From: an uncultured Candidatus Saccharibacteria bacterium
Lineage (GTDB): Bacteria; Patescibacteriota; Minisyncoccia; Phycocordibacterales; Phycocordibacteraceae
Direction: 5' to 3'
Length of the DNA: 64,000 nt
NCBI GenBank assembly: GCA_964650475.1
Contig: CAZYRK010000002.1
Coordinates: 12,087-76,086, forward strand
Of this stretch, positions 11,877 to 56,322 are shown in pieces. Below the pieces are notes generated by a model that saw nothing but the letters and a program-made list of their open reading frames with translations, had not been told where the DNA came from and searched no databases. Within the stretch, counting starts at the first letter, position 1, and each line of letters opens with the position of its first letter. Position numbers and translations under genes: made by a program.

Positions 11877-12281
11877 TTAGTGATTTAGCTTCCCGCTAGG
11901 GTCAATATGTGTAATACAGAAAAATTGTTGTTTTTGATAACCAAACACGCGAAACAGCTTGTCTGACTCGACACGAAAATGAAAATAATACTGTTCCATA
12001 AGATTACCCTCATAAGTGCTCTGCGTACTTATTAAATTGAAGTTTGGAGCTCCTTGTTTTTCAAACGTTAGCCCCTTTTTTCTTGAGAGATTCGCAAACT
12101 GCTTCCATGTTAATTTTTCCACATATTGCAGTTTGTGTAAAAAAATTTTTGCTTGCTCCTTATTTAAGGGCCAGAACGAATACTTTTTATCAAGCGAGCA
12201 GTCACTTATGGAAAAACAAATTTTTTCTTCTGCGTATTCAAGATTAATTTTTGTTGATACGTCGTGTTCGTCCATAGGCAA
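11877..12281 (-). CDS. Hypothetical protein; candidate toxin partner of the upstream Panacea-domain gene
   Basis: 134-aa ORF 13 nt downstream of the DUF4065 gene on the same strand. The C-terminus YYFHFRVESDKLFRVFGYQKQQFFCITHID loosely resembles RelE/ParE/HigB-type toxin C-termini. No confident family call. Confidence 0.35.
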   Translation of the reverse strand: MPMDEHDVSTKINLEYAEEKICFSISDCSLDKKYSFWPLNKEQAKIFLHKLQYVEKLTWKQFANLSRKKGLTFEKQGAPNFNLISTQSTYEGNLMEQYYFHFRVESDKLFRVFGYQKQQFFCITHIDPSGKLNH

Positions 12282-12294
12282 GGAAAAACCCGAC

Positions 12295-12759
12295 CTATTT
12301 ATTCAATAACGGGCTGTAATACTCTTTAAGGGCTTTGTTTGAAATGATTTGACTCGATGTTTTGTTTGCTTCTTTCCATGGAGTATGAGCATGGGTAATA
12401 TTAACGAGCTTGCTTGCGGAATAACCACCGAAAGTGTTCCAGATTATTTGAACAACTTTTTTATCCTCTTCGGAAAGCGATGACTTGCCGTCATCAATAA
12501 TCGGATTACTGCCATTACTTCGATATTTTTTATAAACACGCGAAACAACCGGTCCGTACTCCCACGCTTCAATATCATCAGAAAAAAGTGCCCTACCTAA
12601 TTTTGCAATATAATATGCCTGCGCAAAATATAATATCTTTTGTAATTTAAGATTTGTGATTCCTTCGCGTTCCTGATTATCGCCGACAAGCTCTTTTGAA
12701 GCGAGATGGATGAAATATTTTGCAACATTGTCGGCTGTGTAAGTTATTTTTTTAGCCAT
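12295..12759 (-). CDS. Panacea-domain (DUF4065/SocA-like) antitoxin-family protein
   Basis: ..NLKLQKILYFAQAYYIAKLGRALFSDDIEAWEYGPVVSRVY.. matches the DUF4065 core. The likely start is the internal MAKKITYT (12759); the ORF extends to 12822. Confidence 0.65.
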   Translation of the reverse strand: MAKKITYTADNVAKYFIHLASKELVGDNQEREGITNLKLQKILYFAQAYYIAKLGRALFSDDIEAWEYGPVVSRVYKKYRSNGSNPIIDDGKSSLSEEDKKVVQIIWNTFGGYSASKLVNITHAHTPWKEANKTSSQIISNKALKEYYSPLLNK

Positions 12760-12858
12760 ATATAAACTATATCTTGCTGAGTAACAAAAGCCAACAAAAT
12801 CCCGGCAATCATCATTGTGCATAAGTAAAGCGCGCGTAGTTATATATTGTTCAGCACA

Positions 12859-12898
12859 CCGGGCTACTTAGGGGTCGCCCCCCCCTAAGTAGCCCGGG
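12859..12898. repeat. 40-bp hairpin element, copy 1 (flanks hicAB)
   Basis: CCGGGCTACTTAGGGGTCGCCCCCCCCTAAGTAGCCCGGG. The same core is repeated at 13363-13400 in the same orientation. Confidence 0.7.
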
Positions 12899-12905
12899 AT
12901 GTTTA

Positions 12906-13100
12906 CTATTTTTTACTTATGCCTATTATACCGAGGTCATTACAAATTTTTTTCGCAAGAAAGTTATTTATCTCATTATGTCTTGGAACGGTGGATAATT
13001 TTTTAATGGTTGGATTGAGATACACGCTATGCTTTGCACCCTCCCGCAAAAATATACACCCACATTTTATAAGATGTTTTATGAGGTCAGTCCTTTTCAT
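12906..13100 (-). CDS. hicA: HicA-family mRNA interferase toxin
   Basis: 64 aa, MKRTDLIKHLIKCGCIFLREGAKHSVYLNPTIKKLSTVPRH is close to the HicA consensus (..GSHhxF.hP....tVP.H). Confidence 0.8.
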   Translation of the reverse strand: MKRTDLIKHLIKCGCIFLREGAKHSVYLNPTIKKLSTVPRHNEINNFLAKKICNDLGIIGISKK

Positions 13101-13360
13101 TAGATGGAGACAATGAGATTCTCTTTTATAATTTTTTGCTTGCTATTTGACTTATACATCAAACGGTTTGTCTCCAGCACCAAAAAAAGTGCGTCTTTAA
13201 GATTTTCTTTTGTCTCACTCAGTGTGGCACCTTGAGTATTCACGCCGGGGACTTCTTCAATCCACCCAGAGTACCACTTTCCATCTTTTTTATAGTTTGC
13301 TGTAAATTGTCTTTTCATATACATAGTATACATTACATTAATATATAGATGCGAGCCCAC
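13100..13360 (-). CDS. hicB: HicB-family antitoxin
   Basis: 86 aa, ..YKKDGKWYSGWIEEVPGVNTQGATLSETKENLKDALFLVLE is the HicB/UPF0150 fold signature. The stop overlaps the hicA start. Confidence 0.7.
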   Translation of the reverse strand: MGSHLYINVMYTMYMKRQFTANYKKDGKWYSGWIEEVPGVNTQGATLSETKENLKDALFLVLETNRLMYKSNSKQKIIKENLIVSI

Positions 13361-13362
13361 GG

Positions 13363-13400
13363 GGGTTACTTAGGGGTCGCCCCCCCCTAAGTAACCCGGG
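13363..13400. repeat. 40-bp hairpin element, copy 2 (flanks hicAB)
   Basis: GGGGTTACTTAGGGGTCGCCCCCCCCTAAGTAACCCGGGG has an identical loop and core, with compensatory stem changes versus copy 1. Confidence 0.7.
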
Positions 13401-13406
13401 GTGTGA

Positions 13407-13709
13407 TTATTGTCTGGCGTAGCACCCCATAAGCTCCGCGACTGTGATTATGTGCCCCTGCATTTCTGAAAGTACAGTGTCTTTTGTTACCCTTTCTTTA
13501 AGAGAAAGATTTGTATCAAGTGCGTACAGGCTGAAAAAATAACGATGCTCTTTCGGCTCATACTGCGGTGGCGGGCAATGTCCGGTATAGCCATTTTTGC
13601 CGGAACCGTTTGCCCCTTGTGTTCCAAGAATGGTGCCTACGGACAATTGAAAGCGGTGGAGATATGTTTTCACCATCGCACGTGTAGCGCTCGGGGATAT
13701 AATCACCAT
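13407..13709 (-). pseudogene. PEBP/YbhB-YbcL family protein, 5'-truncated remnant
   Basis: ..GYTGHCPPPQYEPKEHRYFFSLYALDTNLSL...GHIITVAELMGCY matches the C-terminal two-thirds of YbhB-type PEBP. The N-terminal ~60 aa are missing, and only 112 nt separate it from the rpsG stop. Confidence 0.5.
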
Positions 13710-13763
13710 TTGAGAATGCGGTTGAGACGAGTGCCGTTTGTATATGTTTATGTTAGCCCAACG

Positions 13764-13797
13764 AAAGGGGCGCGCGACAAAGTCGCGCGCCCCTTTC
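13764..13797 (-). terminator. Hairpin after rpsG
   Basis: AAAGGGGCGCGCGAC-AAA-GTCGCGCGCCCCTTTC. Confidence 0.45.
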
Positions 13798-16066: not shown

Positions 16067-18835
16067 ATGTACACCATAAAGATATTAAAATGTAAACCAA
16101 TGCGCGCACATAAGCCCCTACTCTTTTCACTCGCAGTTTTTATCTTTGCTGTTTTGGTAGGCGTGCCTCAAGTCTCTCGGGCAGATACAAATCCAAATAT
16201 TCCACAATGCCCAAGATTCGAAAAAACCGGGCTGCGCTGGACAAATCCAGACCCGCATCGAAACACTTTCAATCAGACTTTTCCTAAAATAGATATGACT
16301 GGGGATATTTTTATATCTAATTATCCTGGTATTTTTATGCAGGACGGTGGCACGTACTCTTTTCCTTTTCATATACCCAGTTTTGGTTATGTGGTTATTG
16401 CAGGTACAAACTGTTCCAAAACAAAAGGCGACCTGTACTTTCTTCCGAAAGATTCCAGCGCACGCCAATTCGTAACGAGCTTCCATGGAGCCGGAGATAT
16501 TTTTGGGGGTTCACCTTACAGCCCACCGGACATTACTTATTTCCAATGGAAAAAATCCGGGCAATACGAGCTTGATATCCAAGAAAAGAATTCTGACACC
16601 GGCACATATGCGCTTACAAAAACCATTCACTTTACAGCAATAAACACCGACAACCCTTGCTCTGCCCCCAATTCCTGTTTTGACAATGTTCTTTTTATCC
16701 CGGGCACCGAAGCGAGCAGACTGTACTACAAAGACGGTTTTGGTGAACACCAAGTATGGGAACCGGATTTTTATACCGATATACCGTACCTAGAAATGAA
16801 CCAAGACGGCACGAGCAAACACACGCTGTACACGAAAGACATTATCGGGAGTTTGTATGGGAACACTACGGTCGAGAAAAAGATTGCTCTGCAATACTTA
16901 AACCAGGACGGAGTACAGGTCTACGGAAACTTCGAAAAGTTTATGAACGGGCTCGTAGCTTCAAGCACAATTAAGCAATGGTCTGCTTACCCCTACGACT
17001 GGCGCTACAGCGCGGACGACATTGTAAACAACGGAACTCTCACAGAAATGCCAAACGGCACCTTAAAACGCGTTTATATTGAAAAAGAGATCGAAAACCT
17101 TGCGTCAAGCTCCCCGACGGGGAAAGTAATGATTGTGGCACATTCAAATGGTGGTTTGGTTGCAAAAGAGCTTTTACAGAAACTCTCCAACGACGGCAAG
17201 CTAAAGCTTGTTGACAAGTTCGTTATGGTTGCCACTCCGCAATGGGGTACACCGGAAGCTATCGGCGTACTATTGCATGGAGACGGACAGACTCAAGCGC
17301 ACGGGCTTCTTATGAGCAGTGCCGAGACCCGAAGAGTAACAAAAACAATGCCCGGAGCTTACGACCTTTTGCCATCCTGGGAATATTTTCAGCAAATTAC
17401 TATTCCGGTTATCACTATCGATGCAAACGGCTCCGCCACAAACGACCTTGCAAAAGCTTTCGGAACAAAAATATCTTATTTCACAGAATTCGCAAATTTT
17501 CTTGAACACGGGTTTGGATATTTCCCCGCCCCGCAAGACACGGACACAGCACTGCGCACACCTATAGCTCTTTCCAAAAAACTCATCGATAAAGCAAAAG
17601 ACATGCATTTTCTTATAGACGTAGCGACCAGATGGTCGGATCTTTACGGTATCGACGTAACAGCGATAGCAGGCTGGGGGCAAAACACAGTAAAAACACT
17701 GGCGTACTCTACCGGGCAAAAAACAATCTGCACAAACCTCACCGCCGATGTTATAAACGCTTTTGAACCTCCGTGCCATACCTACTATTATCTCGAACAC
17801 ACACCGGTAACAACCCAAGGTGGAGACGGCACCGTCGTTTATCAAAGTGCTGTTGGAAATATTATTCACGAGTTGTTTTTTGATTCTTTTCTTTTCAAGA
17901 AAATCTTCCACGAGAAAATAGTCCACCAAAACATAACCTCCGCACCGCCAATACAAAATGTAATTAAAGACATTCTTACAAACAAAAAAGTACAGAAAAC
18001 AAACTACATAACAAAAACAAAACCTTCTTCCGGTGAAACTTTCCACGAAATCCGTATAAGCTCTCATTCTCCGGTAAATATTCTTATAACTTCCGCAAAC
18101 GGGGAACAGAGCGGTGTTGTCCATATTCCCGGCACAGACTTCTCTGGAACAAAAATGGATATTCTAGGAAGCTCCGTGCAGGTTTTCGATACAGAAGAGT
18201 ATGTAAGCCTTCCAAAAAATGGAAACTATAAAGTGGTTGCGCGGGGTCACGGAAACGGCACAGCAACAATACTTATTGAAACGATAGCCCAAGACGGAAC
18301 TGCGAGCACTACAAATACGTTTGCGGAAATTCCGACCACGGCAAGCTCCACCATTACTTTCTCCGTATCAAAAGGACAGCCTACAGCACCTATAATAGAC
18401 CTCACAGGAACCGGCAAACACACTTTTACCATACCTGTTGGCAACGACCCGCTCGCATATGTTCTTTATATGAAAAACGCGATTAAAGAAATGAATCTCT
18501 CTCGCGGTGAGCACTTTGTTATCAATGCAAAGCTCTCCGTGATAGAAATGCAGATAAAAAGCTCCAAAGAAACATCGCGATTTTTCAGAAAGGTGTGGCG
18601 AGGACACAGACCATACGGCAAACTGAGCGCCTGGCGAAACAAACAGATTAAATTTGAGCTTGCTGTTCTTACTCGCTATATCAACCACCAGTTTTCTCTT
18701 TCTGCGCGTATCGATAAAAATAAAGACATGCGCTCGCATCGGCACTTCGCCCGATACAATATGCAACCACACATAAGTGCGACGCAAGCTGAAACCATTA
18801 TCGATATGATCAACCGCCTAAAAAACTTAATCTAA
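16067..18835 (+). CDS. Secreted alpha/beta-hydrolase (lipase/esterase-like, GHSxG-type nucleophile elbow) with large C-terminal region
   Basis: 922 aa with a signal peptide (MRAHKPLLFSLAVFIFAVLVGVPQVSRA) and IVAHSNGGLVAKELL nucleophile motif typical of PGAP1/lipase-class hydrolases. The last ~120 aa are unusually basic. Confidence 0.6.
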   Translation: MYTIKILKCKPMRAHKPLLFSLAVFIFAVLVGVPQVSRADTNPNIPQCPRFEKTGLRWTNPDPHRNTFNQTFPKIDMTGDIFISNYPGIFMQDGGTYSFPFHIPSFGYVVIAGTNCSKTKGDLYFLPKDSSARQFVTSFHGAGDIFGGSPYSPPDITYFQWKKSGQYELDIQEKNSDTGTYALTKTIHFTAINTDNPCSAPNSCFDNVLFIPGTEASRLYYKDGFGEHQVWEPDFYTDIPYLEMNQDGTSKHTLYTKDIIGSLYGNTTVEKKIALQYLNQDGVQVYGNFEKFMNGLVASSTIKQWSAYPYDWRYSADDIVNNGTLTEMPNGTLKRVYIEKEIENLASSSPTGKVMIVAHSNGGLVAKELLQKLSNDGKLKLVDKFVMVATPQWGTPEAIGVLLHGDGQTQAHGLLMSSAETRRVTKTMPGAYDLLPSWEYFQQITIPVITIDANGSATNDLAKAFGTKISYFTEFANFLEHGFGYFPAPQDTDTALRTPIALSKKLIDKAKDMHFLIDVATRWSDLYGIDVTAIAGWGQNTVKTLAYSTGQKTICTNLTADVINAFEPPCHTYYYLEHTPVTTQGGDGTVVYQSAVGNIIHELFFDSFLFKKIFHEKIVHQNITSAPPIQNVIKDILTNKKVQKTNYITKTKPSSGETFHEIRISSHSPVNILITSANGEQSGVVHIPGTDFSGTKMDILGSSVQVFDTEEYVSLPKNGNYKVVARGHGNGTATILIETIAQDGTASTTNTFAEIPTTASSTITFSVSKGQPTAPIIDLTGTGKHTFTIPVGNDPLAYVLYMKNAIKEMNLSRGEHFVINAKLSVIEMQIKSSKETSRFFRKVWRGHRPYGKLSAWRNKQIKFELAVLTRYINHQFSLSARIDKNKDMRSHRHFARYNMQPHISATQAETIIDMINRLKNLI

Positions 18836-19301
18836 CTTTATGAAACTCTGGTATAAAAAATCTAGCCTTTTCATACTCGCCGGCATTTCGTATCTTGTCG
18901 GGCAGTATTTTAGAGGAGAATGGTGGCCTTTTTTCACATGGCCATTCAAATGCAATATGATAACTTCAGGAACCGCCATGTACTGCGACCCTAAATATAT
19001 GGACACTCTCGGCTTTCCTCTCATCGTCCTCGGACAGACGCTCGCTATCGTTGCGCTCATACTTTTGCTTGCAAACGAAAGTGCTTTTCGCAAATGGCTT
19101 CACTTTAGTTATTGGTATGTGCCTGTTGCAACAATACTCTCGTTTATGATGTATCCCGCCCATACCCCTCTTGGCGGAGAGGTTTCTATTTCGCAAGGTG
19201 TTTATTTGTTTGGGAGACCGTATGTTCTCATCACCGCCGGGATTGTAATTCTATATATTCTAAAATTCCTAAAGAGACAACTTCGGGAAAGGAGACTCCG
19301 A
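18791..19301. repeat. 511-bp direct repeat, copy 1
   Basis: Identical ORFs on both strands and identical boundary sequence imply that 18791-19301 equals 19990-20500. It includes the last 45 nt of the hydrolase gene. Confidence 0.75.
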
Positions 19302-19428: not shown

Positions 19429-19743
19429 ATGAAGAATACTTTCAAAAAAGGGGTTTCCAGAGTTTTGATTTTTTTCGATACTGCGGAAAAAGTTTGGTAT
19501 GGGGTTGCTTTGGATTTTAATCTTATCGTTGACGGAAACGAACCGGAGACGGTTCGGAAAGACCTCCGGAATTTAATGCTCGACTATATCGACTCTGCAA
19601 AAAAGCTGGGGGACGAAAAACTTTTGAATAGAAAAATCGATAGTGAGTATGAAAAGATATGGAAAGAACTAGAAAAAGGAAACTTGGAAAAGAAGCTTTT
19701 GTCTCCATATCGGTTCTACTCTGCGAGTAAAGAATATGTCTAA
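19429..19743 (+). CDS. hicB: HicB-like antitoxin (UPF0150 fold)
   Basis: 104 aa, ..VLIFFDTAEKVWYGVALDFNLIVDGNEPETVRKDLRNLMLDYIDSA is a HicB-like pattern. It overlaps downstream hicA by 8 nt. Confidence 0.5.
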   Translation: MKNTFKKGVSRVLIFFDTAEKVWYGVALDFNLIVDGNEPETVRKDLRNLMLDYIDSAKKLGDEKLLNRKIDSEYEKIWKELEKGNLEKKLLSPYRFYSASKEYV

Positions 19744-19975
19744 TTGTTATAAAAATTGGATTTTTATAGATATTAAAAAGTTTTTAGTTATAAACGATTT
19801 CAAATTGTTGAGACAAAAAGGAAGTCATGTTCATTTTTATAAAAAAGTACATGGAAAAACTTTTTTGGTTACGGTTCCATTCCATGGGAAGCAAAGCCTT
19901 AAAATAAAGACTATGAAAAATGTCATCGACAATTCACAAATTGATAAAGAAAAATGGTTTGAATTTAAAAAATAA
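19736..19975 (+). CDS. hicA: HicA-family toxin
   Basis: 79 aa, ..FKLLRQKGSHVHFYKKVHGKTFLVTVPFHGKQSLKIKTMKNVI matches HicA consensus. Confidence 0.65.
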   Translation: MSNCYKNWIFIDIKKFLVINDFKLLRQKGSHVHFYKKVHGKTFLVTVPFHGKQSLKIKTMKNVIDNSQIDKEKWFEFKK

Positions 19976-19989
19976 GTAATTGCTCTTAA

Positions 19990-20500
19990 GAAACCATTAT
20001 CGATATGATCAACCGCCTAAAAAACTTAATCTAACTTTATGAAACTCTGGTATAAAAAATCTAGCCTTTTCATACTCGCCGGCATTTCGTATCTTGTCGG
20101 GCAGTATTTTAGAGGAGAATGGTGGCCTTTTTTCACATGGCCATTCAAATGCAATATGATAACTTCAGGAACCGCCATGTACTGCGACCCTAAATATATG
20201 GACACTCTCGGCTTTCCTCTCATCGTCCTCGGACAGACGCTCGCTATCGTTGCGCTCATACTTTTGCTTGCAAACGAAAGTGCTTTTCGCAAATGGCTTC
20301 ACTTTAGTTATTGGTATGTGCCTGTTGCAACAATACTCTCGTTTATGATGTATCCCGCCCATACCCCTCTTGGCGGAGAGGTTTCTATTTCGCAAGGTGT
20401 TTATTTGTTTGGGAGACCGTATGTTCTCATCACCGCCGGGATTGTAATTCTATATATTCTAAAATTCCTAAAGAGACAACTTCGGGAAAGGAGACTCCGA
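19990..20500. repeat. 511-bp direct repeat, copy 2
   Basis: See copy 1. It starts with a duplicated fragment of the hydrolase 3' end (..ETIIDMINRLKNLI*). Confidence 0.75.
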
Positions 20501-45932: not shown

Positions 45933-45996
45933 ATTATTTACATAATACAACACGTTCACCAAACGTACACAAAAACTTTTGCGTATCCTTCTTTGT

Positions 45997-46524
45997 TTGG
46001 GAAGGTTAGACCTTCCCAACTTCCCAAGAACCATCTTTGGCACTTTTTGGGAAGGTCTAACCTTCCCAACTTTCCACAAATAAAAACCTAAGCGGTATGC
46101 CGACACTCGTTTTGCGGACACTAAGTGTCCGCAAGTGGGCTAGAAATCGTAATCGGAGAGTATGTCGAGTTTGTGTTCCATGCGCTCGCGAGCGAACTCT
46201 TTAAAAGACCCGGGCTCATTGAAGATTTCTCCGAGGAGCTCAGTGTCTAAAATCGGTGATACATTTTTCGAATTCTCGACAGGAGCACTCGTTTTGCGGA
46301 CACTAAGTGTCCGCAAGTGGGAAAGAAAGTGTTTGCGTAGCATGTTTTGCGGACACTTAGTGTCCGCAAAACAAGTGTTTGCGTTTCGTCCGTGCCATAT
46401 TGTTTTGTAATGTAGCGTGTGGTTTTTCATCAGGAGAGACCAGCTAACATTTTGGGAAGGTCTAACCTTCCCAACTTCCCGAGAACCATCTTTGGCACTT
46501 TTTGGGAAGGTTAGACCTTCCCAA
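45997..46524. repeat. Cluster A of 23-bp perfect-palindrome repeats R1 (TTGCGGACAC-T[A/T]A-GTGTCCGCAA) and R2 (TTGGGAAGGT-[TAG/CTA]-ACCTTCCCAA) with shared flanks
   Basis: R2 is at 45997, 46047, 46452 and 46502. R1 is at 46112, 46294 and 46347. Connector segments are shared (GAACCATCTTTGGCACTTT; CCACAAATAAAAACCTAAGCGGTA). Confidence 0.85.
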
Positions 46525-46570
46525 CTTGAGTGGGTGTAATTCATGTGAAAATTGCGGTAAACAAAAAGCC

Positions 46571-55526: not shown

Positions 55527-55578
55527 ACCCACACACACAACAGCCCCGACCTTAAAAGGTCGGGGCTGTTGTGTGTGT
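55527..55578 (+). terminator. Hairpin terminator
   Basis: ACACACAACAGCCCCGACC-TTAAAA-GGTCGGGGCTGTTGTGTGTG. Confidence 0.5.
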
Positions 55579-55617
55579 GGGTTTTGGGTGACAAACAGGT
55601 AAATGGTTTGGTGTCTG

Positions 55618-55955
55618 TTTTGCGGACACTTTTGCGGACACTAAGTGTCCGCAAACCGATGTTTGCGTTTCGTCCGCGTCATATTGTTTTTTTTGCGGAC
55701 ACTAAGTGTCCGCAAACCGAGACCTTCCCAACTTTTTTCCACAAATAAAAACCTAAGCGGTACGTTGCGATGGATAGGGTAAGACATGTCCGAGCGGCCC
55801 GGAGCATGTTTTGCCGACACTTTTGCGGACACTTAGTGTCCGCAAAACATGCTCCGCAAAAACTCTCTGCCGCTTAGTGTCGGCAGAGAGTTTCGCGTGT
55901 GGTTTTGGGGTTTAGATAGACCGGCTAACATTTTGTGAAGGTTAGCCCTCCCCAA
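55618..55955. repeat. Cluster B of R1/R2 palindrome repeat family
   Basis: R1 is at 55632, 55693 and 55823, with partial copies and a related hairpin CTCTCTGCCG-CTTAGTGT-CGGCAGAGAG. There is a half R2 at 55722, a degenerate R2 at 55933, and the same connector CCACAAATAAAAACCTAAGCGGTA as cluster A. Confidence 0.8.
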
Positions 55956-56322
55956 ATCTATACAATGTTAAATTGTGTAAGAAGCATTGTCTTTACGGTC
56001 TTAAATTTTAACAAAAGGAAACAGCACCGCGGGGATATAAAAAACATTGTCTTTTTCAAGACAAAAAATCTATTTCACACTGGTTTTTATCCTACTCAAG
56101 TATTTCGAACATACGTTGATAAAAAATCAAGGTATTTTTATCAACGTATGTGGGAAAATAGGCGGTTGGAAGTCTTTATTTTGCAAAAAAAAACCGGCAA
56201 AACCTTTTCTCAAAGAAGGCTTAAAGAAAAAGCCTAGTGCGGTTTTCGTGCTCTCGCAAAGCACCGCCCAATTAAAAAAGCCCCGACCTTTTTAAGGTCG
56301 GGGCTTTGGCTCGCAGATATTG

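Follow-up and report, generated by a model that had tools for sequence, protein, structure and literature searches.

Two nearly identical hairpins bracket a small toxin-antitoxin module in the genome of an uncultured Candidatus Saccharibacteria bacterium, and this raises the question of what the hairpins are and whether they have a part in the gain and loss of the genes between them. The genomes of Patescibacteria are tiny and contain few mobile elements that can be recognised as such, yet genes are gained and lost among their strains. We analysed a 64,000-nt stretch of this genome (the window; contig CAZYRK010000002.1, positions 12,087 to 76,086), in which the two hairpins flank the gene pair hicB-hicA at a spacing of 502 nt. 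The explanation that we lean towards, at slightly better than even confidence, is that the two copies are paralogous palindromes resembling repetitive extragenic palindromes (REP) and tied to a Y1 gene like those of REP-associated tyrosine transposases (RAYT), that they are stem-loops 3' of genes, and that they are the recombination breakpoints of the hicBA module.

Both hairpins are GC-rich, span 40 nt and read on the minus strand. Copy 1, the distal one (12859-12898, CCGGGCTACTTAGGGGTCGCCCCCCCCTAAGTAGCCCGGG), has a 16-bp stem and follows the hicA stop codon at a distance of 7 nt; copy 2, the proximal one (13362-13401, GGGGTTACTTAGGGGTCGCCCCCCCCTAAGTAACCCGGGG), has a 14-bp core stem and lies 5 nt 3' of the stop codon of a PEBP pseudogene. 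Their common 7-nt loop is GGGGCGA when read on the gene-sense strand. The stems are perfect over 14-16 bp, with no bulges, and differ by one compensated pair (C-G in copy 1, T-A in copy 2) and by two extra outer pairs in copy 1. A first-pass annotation had described two same-orientation hairpins with an identical loop and no U-tract, exactly flanking hicB-hicA, and all of this was confirmed; its coordinates for copy 1 also stand, while copy 2 extends one base further at each end than the 13363-13400 given there. A repeat finder delimits the direct repeat as 42 nt with 93% identity (12861-12902 and 13363-13404), and in the alignment the flanks are weakly similar, with a TAA stop and ACAY upstream and GTGKGCT downstream in gene sense. 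Exactly two occurrences of the 25-nt core ACTTAGGGGTCGCCCCCCCCTAAGT were counted in the window, where shuffled sequences lead one to expect none. The exact core 21-mer TTAGGGGTCGCCCCCCCCTAA was found in none of the genome contigs, none of the viral contigs and one metagenome contig of the same species, and relaxed palindrome scans of the viral contigs gave unrelated chance hairpins or nothing.

Natural strain variants show what can become of the module. Nine contigs of the collection carry the 132-aa partner protein encoded at this locus; seven loci were returned, and the other two are presumably L002 and L003. The two-hairpin arrangement or variants of it occur in four independent assemblies from other samples (L002, L003, L087 and L001/L097), and with four or more such assemblies an artefact of assembly was ruled out. 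The full cassette is present in the window, L002 and L003 (SRR6439371). In L087 and in L097, which is the same contig as L001, hicA is deleted and hicB truncated by a deletion between short direct repeats. In L100 (SRR6439372, the run accession adjacent to that of L003), hicBA is absent: the PEBP tail is followed by GGGTTACTTAGGGGGGGCGACCCCTAAGTAGCCC, AGTGTGCTGAAC and then socA. The junction reads GGGTTAC..core..GTAGCCC-AGTG, and the single hairpin is a hybrid that matches copy 2 in its left arm and flank and an L087-type copy 1 in its right arm and flank. Its sequence is what a crossover between the direct repeats, inside the 26 nt that are identical in both cores, would be expected to leave. 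Because L100 carries a hybrid hairpin without the cassette, we conclude that the repeats recombine and delete hicBA, and the strains form a decay series from the full cassette through the loss of hicA (L087, L097) to the loss of the whole cassette (L100).

Two other readings of L100 were considered. Taking it as the ancestral state would need two independent, opposite repairs of a T.G pair and conflicts with the C-G pair in the orthologous hairpin of a relative, L012, a pair that copy 1 also has. The two polymorphic sites in the L100 hairpin are 28 nt apart and Logan contigs are built at k=31, so the hybrid k-mers must stem from real reads; an in-vitro chimera retains a small probability. Among the other variants, hicB is cut to 64 aa in the alleles that lost hicA (L087 1-375; L097 1-270, equivalent to L001 14637-14805), with the short direct repeats at window positions 12902-12918 and 13125-13141. 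L087 has a G7 run rather than G8 in both hairpins, and in L098 the outer stem of copy 1 is altered to CACTGGG...CCCAGTG.

Here, one palindrome copy lies after PEBP and another after hicA, which leaves the 0.5-kb hicBA bracketed by direct repeats. On DNA, these repeats are the breakpoints where hicBA is lost and probably was also gained, and recombination between them removes hicBA and leaves one hybrid hairpin. The earlier comparison with recombination sites that bound a gene cassette thus found support in L100, which lost hicBA and kept a hybrid hairpin, and in an exchange of PEBP and hairpin that breaks at the hairpins, as discussed below.

An integron-like cassette array, in which the hairpins would be attC sites for an IntI-type tyrosine recombinase, would also leave one hybrid site on excision, and it would account for the layout of ORF(s) (open reading frames) plus 3' hairpin, for the direct orientation and for the cargo, toxin-antitoxin modules being typical of chromosomal integrons. 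We give it next to no credence, and of the attC-like or MITE-like (miniature inverted-repeat transposable element) identity proposed in the first-pass annotation neither survived. The arms (GGGCTACTT / GGGTTACTT ... AAGTAGCCC / AAGTAACCC) contain no R''/R' core sites and, more generally, no R/L boxes. In place of the RYYYAAC/GTTRRRY boxes stands GTTACTT, which fails the RRR positions of GTTRRRY, or GCTACTT, and copy 1 is without any GTT. The perfect stems have neither the extrahelical bases nor the unpaired central spacer of folded attC sites. No integrase domain was found in the window ORFs scanned with Pfam, nor was a recombinase gene, also proposed as a thing to look for, found in the window; the remaining ORFs we take, by eye, to be housekeeping genes. 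The neighbouring SocA cassette has no such hairpin. A MITE was ruled out as well, as there are no terminal inverted repeats and no target-site duplication, and the unit is 502 nt long with two genes, has direct repeats and is represented by two hairpin copies only.

A second line of evidence comes from the gene upstream. The gene order on the minus strand is rpsL, rpsG, a GC hairpin, the PEBP fragment, copy 2, hicB, hicA, copy 1, a SocA/Panacea gene, its 134-aa partner and fusA. The PEBP (YbhB/YbcL-like) pseudogene (13407-13742, minus strand; family fragment at 13709-13407 in gene order) has lost its start codon and carries an internal deletion of ~140 bp and a frameshift. In L012, whose RpsG is 76% identical, a full-length PEBP gene follows rpsG and there is no hicBA. 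A hairpin (CCCCGGGCTACTTAGGGGT-GCG-ACCCCTAAGTAGCCCGGGG, L012 7020-7060) lies 6 nt after this PEBP gene and is the positional ortholog of copy 2; the window copies clearly derive from a hairpin of the L012 type. Compared with L012, the window has a nucleotide identity of 0.65-0.80 over rpsL and rpsG, which rises to 0.92-1.00 at ~13742, in the PEBP body (the deletion excepted), directly past the hairpin 3' of rpsG (13763-13797, minus strand; 16-bp stem, 3-nt loop), which forms the left boundary of the high-identity tract. The high identity lasts to ~13397, at the start of copy 2, falls to 0.68 in the hairpin block (~13345) and is then gone. By core genes (RpsG, EF-G), L012 is among the more distant relatives, whereas by PEBP it is by far the closest. 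This identity jump and the incongruent similarity rankings indicate that PEBP and the hairpin were exchanged horizontally as a block ending at the hairpins. It is worth noting that PEBP (window 13407-13742; L012 6544-7060) is decaying here though 92-100% identical to L012 in nucleotides, against ~76% for rpsG, which suggests that the horizontal exchange was recent.

By contrast, the hairpin does not travel with hicBA. Homologous hicBA cassettes (81% protein identity) in the unrelated loci L084-L086 keep the motif ATGTATACT-TGT-TATG found upstream of hicB in the window and have no such hairpin; therefore, the hairpin belongs to the PEBP locus or the palindrome family rather than to hicBA. The conserved ATGTATACT motif is the probable promoter/operator of hicB, and a role of the hairpin as HicB operator was ruled out by the same hairpin-free cassettes. 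After PEBP, L089 retains decayed remnants of hicB and hicA in the corresponding position, and a different hairpin comes next.

If the hairpin is a member of a palindrome family, to which genes is that family linked? In a screen of all loci for sibling hairpins, two were found in L009, 503 nt apart (TCACTTGGGGGT-GAA-ACCCCCAAGTGA and ACCAACTTGGGGGT-GAA-ACCCCCAAGTTGGT), one just upstream of a 221-aa ORF and one inside it. This ORF matches Pfam Y1_Tnp at 31 bits (cut-off 23), and its match to NCBIfam REP_Tyr_transpos (REP-associated tyrosine transposase), at 27.8 bits, is below the cut-off of 80. The protein has >3500 homologs, the best 120 of which are ~220 aa long and ~70-80% identical; among these 120, every one with an organism name is from Patescibacteria, and several carry the JGI label RayT. 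The HUH (HFH) and Y-V-N-L-N motifs are invariant in the alignment, and the gene occurs across Patescibacteria in single copy, with the conservation of a housekeeping gene. A PDB sequence search with the protein gave no match, and its AlphaFold model (pLDDT 44) was too poor for use. In L103-L108, from another species, the Y1 gene has four copies of ACTTGGGGGT-NNN-ACCCCCAAGT, one upstream and inverted, two within the coding sequence (17-18 bp stems) and one 2 nt past the stop codon. In both L009 and L103-L108, a Y1_Tnp gene is flanked by and contains ACTTGGGGGT-GAA-ACCCCCAAGT.

The palindromes inside the coding sequence are translated as LGGETPK (CTT GGG GGT GAA ACC CCC AAG), and two L..xT.K sites are present in 97 of the 120 Y1 homologs. 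In 74 of 100 proteins, both sites carry the same heptapeptide, compared with 14.6 expected from shuffling, and agreement so far beyond expectation indicates that each lineage keeps its own variant at both sites. The variant LRGETPK occurs in Y1 proteins and would match the arm of the L012 and window hairpins if its codons are CTT AGG GGT GAA ACC CCT AAG. A literature search of limited scope returned no account of RAYT-like genes with internal palindromes in Patescibacteria. The Y1 loci with in-frame palindromes lie at L009 1672-2387 and L103 9953-10688; near the latter type of locus, long poly-G/poly-C palindromes occupy strain-variable intergenic positions (L104 17345-17372, L106 17412-17437, L107 6636-6656), and intergenic lengths differ by 150-280 bp between strains.

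The family core, ACTT(A/G)GGGGT-loop-ACCCC(T/C)AAGT, is extended in the window copies by an outer GGG/CCC stem. We built a covariance model (R1) from six RAYT-linked copies and used it, roughly calibrated, to search 936 kb. Beyond the training set, five sites only were matched at E-values up to 10: L038 5292-5322 (28.7 bits, E 1.8e-4), the L012 PEBP hairpin (25.9 bits, E 1e-3), copy 1 (18.4 bits, E 0.16) and copy 2 (16.1 bits, E 0.8) of the window, and a second L012 hairpin (14.1 bits, E 3) with the same arms as the L012 PEBP hairpin. The low scores of the window copies reflect the expanded G-run of their loop. In L038, the arm variant CTTAGGGG/CCCCTAAG occurs with a GAA loop, and the palindrome CTGAGGGGTGAAACCCCTAAG stands in frame within a 233-aa ORF, where it encodes LRGETPK; the homologous ORF of L009 is without it. 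Another region of L012 (3259-3374, between convergent genes) holds three stacked hairpins inside an outer 10-bp stem (GCCCAAGCCC...GGGCTTGGGC), and the middle hairpin has arms, GCTACTTAGG, in common with the PEBP hairpin.

The near-equal spacing of the hairpins around the Y1_Tnp gene in L009 and around hicBA in the window (503 vs 502 nt), together with the direct orientation of two similar hairpins around a cargo, might point to an IS200/IS605-type origin. Copy 2, hicBA and copy 1 would then form a non-autonomous element, i.e., a palindrome-associated transposable element (PATE) with cargo, mobilised as a single-stranded circle by a Y1 transposase acting in trans. In the IS608 mechanism, however, peel-and-paste excision would take out both hairpins, whereas the empty site of L100 and the L012 locus each retain one, and on this ground an IS200/IS605 transposon was ruled out. 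The stems are perfect, compared with the imperfect ends of IS200/IS605 elements, multiple copies of the unit were found in no collection searched, and the Y1 family is single-copy with housekeeping-like conservation. We therefore regard the non-autonomous element as improbable.

Another explanation has more in its favour, and we consider it possible, though well short of an even chance: the hairpin may be an ordinary 3' terminator or stabiliser without any link to a transposase, duplicated by general recombination when hicBA was inserted, and its resemblance to RAYT palindromes may be due to chance. Insertion could have proceeded via a single crossover with a circle, via template switching or, if DNA had been taken up, via homology-facilitated illegitimate recombination, and loss via RecA or slippage between the repeats. 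Hairpins of this sort are common here. In the window, 48 hairpins have a perfect stem of 10 bp or more, mostly with 2-4-nt loops, and ~27 of the 48 (hand count from the table) are located no more than 75 nt from a gene 3' end, so that long, perfect, GC-rich hairpins lie near many genes. By structure, both copies are members of this general 3'-end class, and it is the shared sequence that distinguishes them. Copy 1 folds at -38 kcal/mol, with a z-score of -6 to -7, and copy 2 at -31 kcal/mol, with a z-score of just -1.6 to -2.1. In the RNA, each copy would form a stable stem-loop 3' of a stop codon that probably ends or protects the mRNA, and we infer that the hairpins act as terminators or stabilisers under either explanation. 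As in intrinsic terminators, a GC-rich stem-loop follows shortly after the stop codon; the U-tract on the transcribed strand is absent, since neither hairpin has a T-run behind it in gene sense (tails GTGTGCTGAAC and CGTGGGCTCGC), and this argues against an ordinary terminator. A terminator scan flagged copy 1 on the antisense (+) strand only, with a weak T tail, and an Rfam search of both hairpins gave no match at either threshold.

Direct repeats around small cassettes can also arise without hairpins. A perfect 511-bp direct repeat in the window (18791-19301 and 19990-20500), nearly the whole of a 158/165-aa membrane-protein gene, flanks a second toxin-antitoxin-like pair (19429-19975) that consists of a 104-aa ORF with no Pfam match and a 79-aa HicA_toxin protein; both Logan contigs with the full hicBA cassette, L002 and L003, end close to the boundary of this repeat. 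In six relatives (L018, L028, L033, L043, L057 and L064), fusA is followed by a small insert and then by a relic fusA 3' end up to the stop codon, with two relic tails in L057; the cargo includes an MNT/HepT toxin-antitoxin pair (L064) and a PaaX-like gene (L028). Differences between functional and relic tails are dominated by synonymous changes (14:2, 12:3 and 11:2 in L057, L028 and L033), which indicates that one fusA tail came from another lineage, and the comparison of native with foreign tails is limited by short tails and distant species. None of these inserts has the palindrome of copies 1 and 2 at its repeats, which shows a hairpin-independent route to flanked cassettes. In addition, the window encodes ComEC and RecJ, and also type IV pilus proteins, as we take them to be by eye, which makes DNA uptake with one-sided homologous recombination a realistic alternative source of the direct repeats.

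These inserts without the palindrome weigh against a role of the REP-like palindrome in cassette movement, and several further points lie on the same side. The link to RAYT runs via the L012 ortholog, which matches R1 significantly (E 1e-3, the model being roughly calibrated), and the window copies alone are marginal matches (E 0.16-0.8). No Y1 homolog was found within the 64-kb window. The palindrome is rare: the 64-kb window has two copies, the 7.9 kb of L012 hold two related ones, and the 20 kb around the Y1 gene of L103 show no copy apart from those of the gene, whereas classical REPs are far more numerous. The TnpA-REP enzyme of E. coli reportedly cuts outside its hairpin, while the L100 junction lies inside the hairpin, and plain recombination between the repeats explains L100 equally well. 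Covariation also gives weak support. Among eight sequences, 16 of 18 stem pairs are invariant and two are compensated, namely a pair that is C-G or U-A (U.G in the recombinant L100) and an outer pair that changes between strains from C-G via C.A to U-A; a covariation score as high as the observed one arises in 24 of 500 shuffles. The paired stem change reported in the first-pass annotation is real, while the selection on structure that was read into it is weakly backed, with a single compensated pair in the window plus one more when strains are compared. The compensated changes point to a conserved structure in a suggestive way only, and templated correction within the palindrome could be an alternative source of them.

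On the other side, chance resemblance fits poorly with the result that the L012 ortholog, the L038 site and the window copies are among the sole matches to R1 outside its training set in 936 kb. The same holds for the recurrence of the arms in the second L012 hairpin and of CTTAGGGG/CCCCTAAG with a GAA loop in L038, and for the presence of LRGETPK in Y1 proteins. We prefer RAYT-linked, REP-like palindromes to ordinary terminators. On this explanation, the organism is predicted to encode such a Y1 enzyme, and this enzyme, rather than RecA or replication slippage between the 26-nt repeats, may catalyse the exchange. The first-pass annotation had set recombination sites against a generic, ubiquitous REP element. 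The hairpins do look REP-like, through their probable relation to palindromes around a RAYT-like gene, and they are rare rather than ubiquitous and tied to the cassette.

A bolder version, which we put forward tentatively as having a minor share of the probability, is that a domesticated Y1 protein and its 21-23-nt palindrome occur throughout the phylum, that palindrome pairs act as single-strand recombination sites, and that the whole amounts to an integron-like cassette system run by an HUH enzyme. The palindrome would be kept twice in frame in the Y1 gene and occasionally be seeded after genes or in frame elsewhere, and pairs of it would delimit small exchangeable modules, such as PEBP and hicBA, in streamlined genomes.

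The module itself and its setting can be described as follows. The hicB antitoxin gene (13100-13333, minus strand; 77 aa) is UPF0150/HicB-like, with a UPF0150 match of 26.5 bits (6.4e-6), slightly below the Pfam cut-off of 27.3 bits, and its homologs are named HicB at NCBI and JGI. The hicA toxin gene (12906-13100, minus strand; 64 aa) matches Pfam HicA_toxin at 4.3e-9. As adjacent small genes with both domains, the two are predicted to form a HicAB type II toxin-antitoxin module. Further along the rpsG-fusA spacer, a cassette follows that consists of the SocA/Panacea-domain gene (12295-12822, minus strand) and the 134-aa partner of no known family (11877-12281, minus strand); together (11877-12822) they probably form a further toxin-antitoxin pair, and they are kept in all strain variants. 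The rpsG-fusA spacer ranges from ~10 bp to >4 kb among ~65 relatives, and because its length ranges so widely we regard it as an insertion hot spot. In L088 (3388-3687), a 79-nt tandem repeat with two full copies and a 42-nt partial copy lies between rpsG and PEBP. The RpsG relatives of the window are all Patescibacteria (Paceibacterota, Kaiserbacteria and Minisyncoccia), the best match being 85%. Exact-protein look-ups of the 165-aa duplicated gene, the second HicA and the PEBP fragment returned no record.

Other palindromes are present in the window. Two apparently non-coding stretches (45996-46527 and 55616-55850) hold two families of perfect palindromes of 23-25 nt, neither of which has an Rfam match. 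The family TTGGGAAGGT-TAG/CTA-ACCTTCCCAA has four copies, in inverted doublets 50 nt apart that resemble REPINs (paired REP sequences), and the family TTGCGGACAC-TAA/TTA-GTGTCCGCAA has six. Two sibling hairpins at 55527-55582 and 56277-56307 share the arm GCCCCGACCTT; their spacing is 695 nt, and the stretch that they bracket, next to thyX, contains no convincing genes.

At this locus, a toxin-antitoxin module can be traced through three natural states, intact, without its toxin and excised, and its breakpoints fall in a palindrome whose apparent relatives surround a conserved gene resembling Y1 transposases. If the Y1 enzyme acts on the hairpins, this would provide a concrete mechanism for the movement of small accessory modules in Patescibacteria, and it would extend REP/RAYT biology to a new phylum, with palindromes that are translated inside the enzyme's own gene. 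If it does not, the locus is a clean case of cassette turnover by recombination between duplicated 3' hairpins.

Compared with known systems, the arrangement shares single features with several. Like integron cassettes, it has ORF(s) with a 3' hairpin in direct orientation, toxin-antitoxin cargo and a single recombinant site after loss; unlike them, it has no IntI, attI, Pc, attC consensus boxes or extrahelical bases, and its hairpin is a perfect palindrome. With the ends of IS200/IS605 elements (IS608 left and right ends, LE/RE) and with PATEs, it shares two similar same-orientation hairpins around a short segment and the presumed chemistry of Y1 transposases, and it differs from them in the hybrid hairpin at the empty site, the perfect stems, the lack of a tnpA inside and the lack of repeated copies of the unit. 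Rickettsia palindromic elements are in-frame insertions of 100-150 nt in protein genes. The palindrome family likewise occurs in frame in coding sequences, twice in the Y1 gene (LGGETPK) and once in the 233-aa ORF of L038 (LRGETPK), although the element is 21-23 nt long and the window copies are intergenic. As in Rho-independent terminators and 3' mRNA stabilisers, and as for many hairpins here, GC-rich stems lie 5-10 nt after stop codons; in contrast to such terminators, the sense strand carries no U-tract, and the sequence is common to the copies and a wider family.

REP palindromes and bacterial interspersed mosaic elements (BIME), with their RAYT (TnpA-REP) Y1 transposases, are known from Enterobacteria and Pseudomonas (PMC3333891, PMC3116915, PMC5581495). 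The palindromes studied here differ from them in the very low copy number in the DNA seen, in their additional presence, twice and in frame, inside the Y1 gene, and in a Y1 protein that scores under the NCBIfam RAYT cut-off and comes from a different phylum; in place of the inverted doublets of REPINs, the window copies form direct repeats that enclose a gene cassette at a spacing of 502 nt. Both copies are, however, extragenic palindromes 3' of genes, as REPs are, and the resemblance to REP/RAYT systems extends to short GC-rich palindromes located just 3' of genes, to a single-copy, vertically conserved Y1/HUH gene flanked by the same palindrome (L009, L103), and to palindrome variants that are specific to each lineage.

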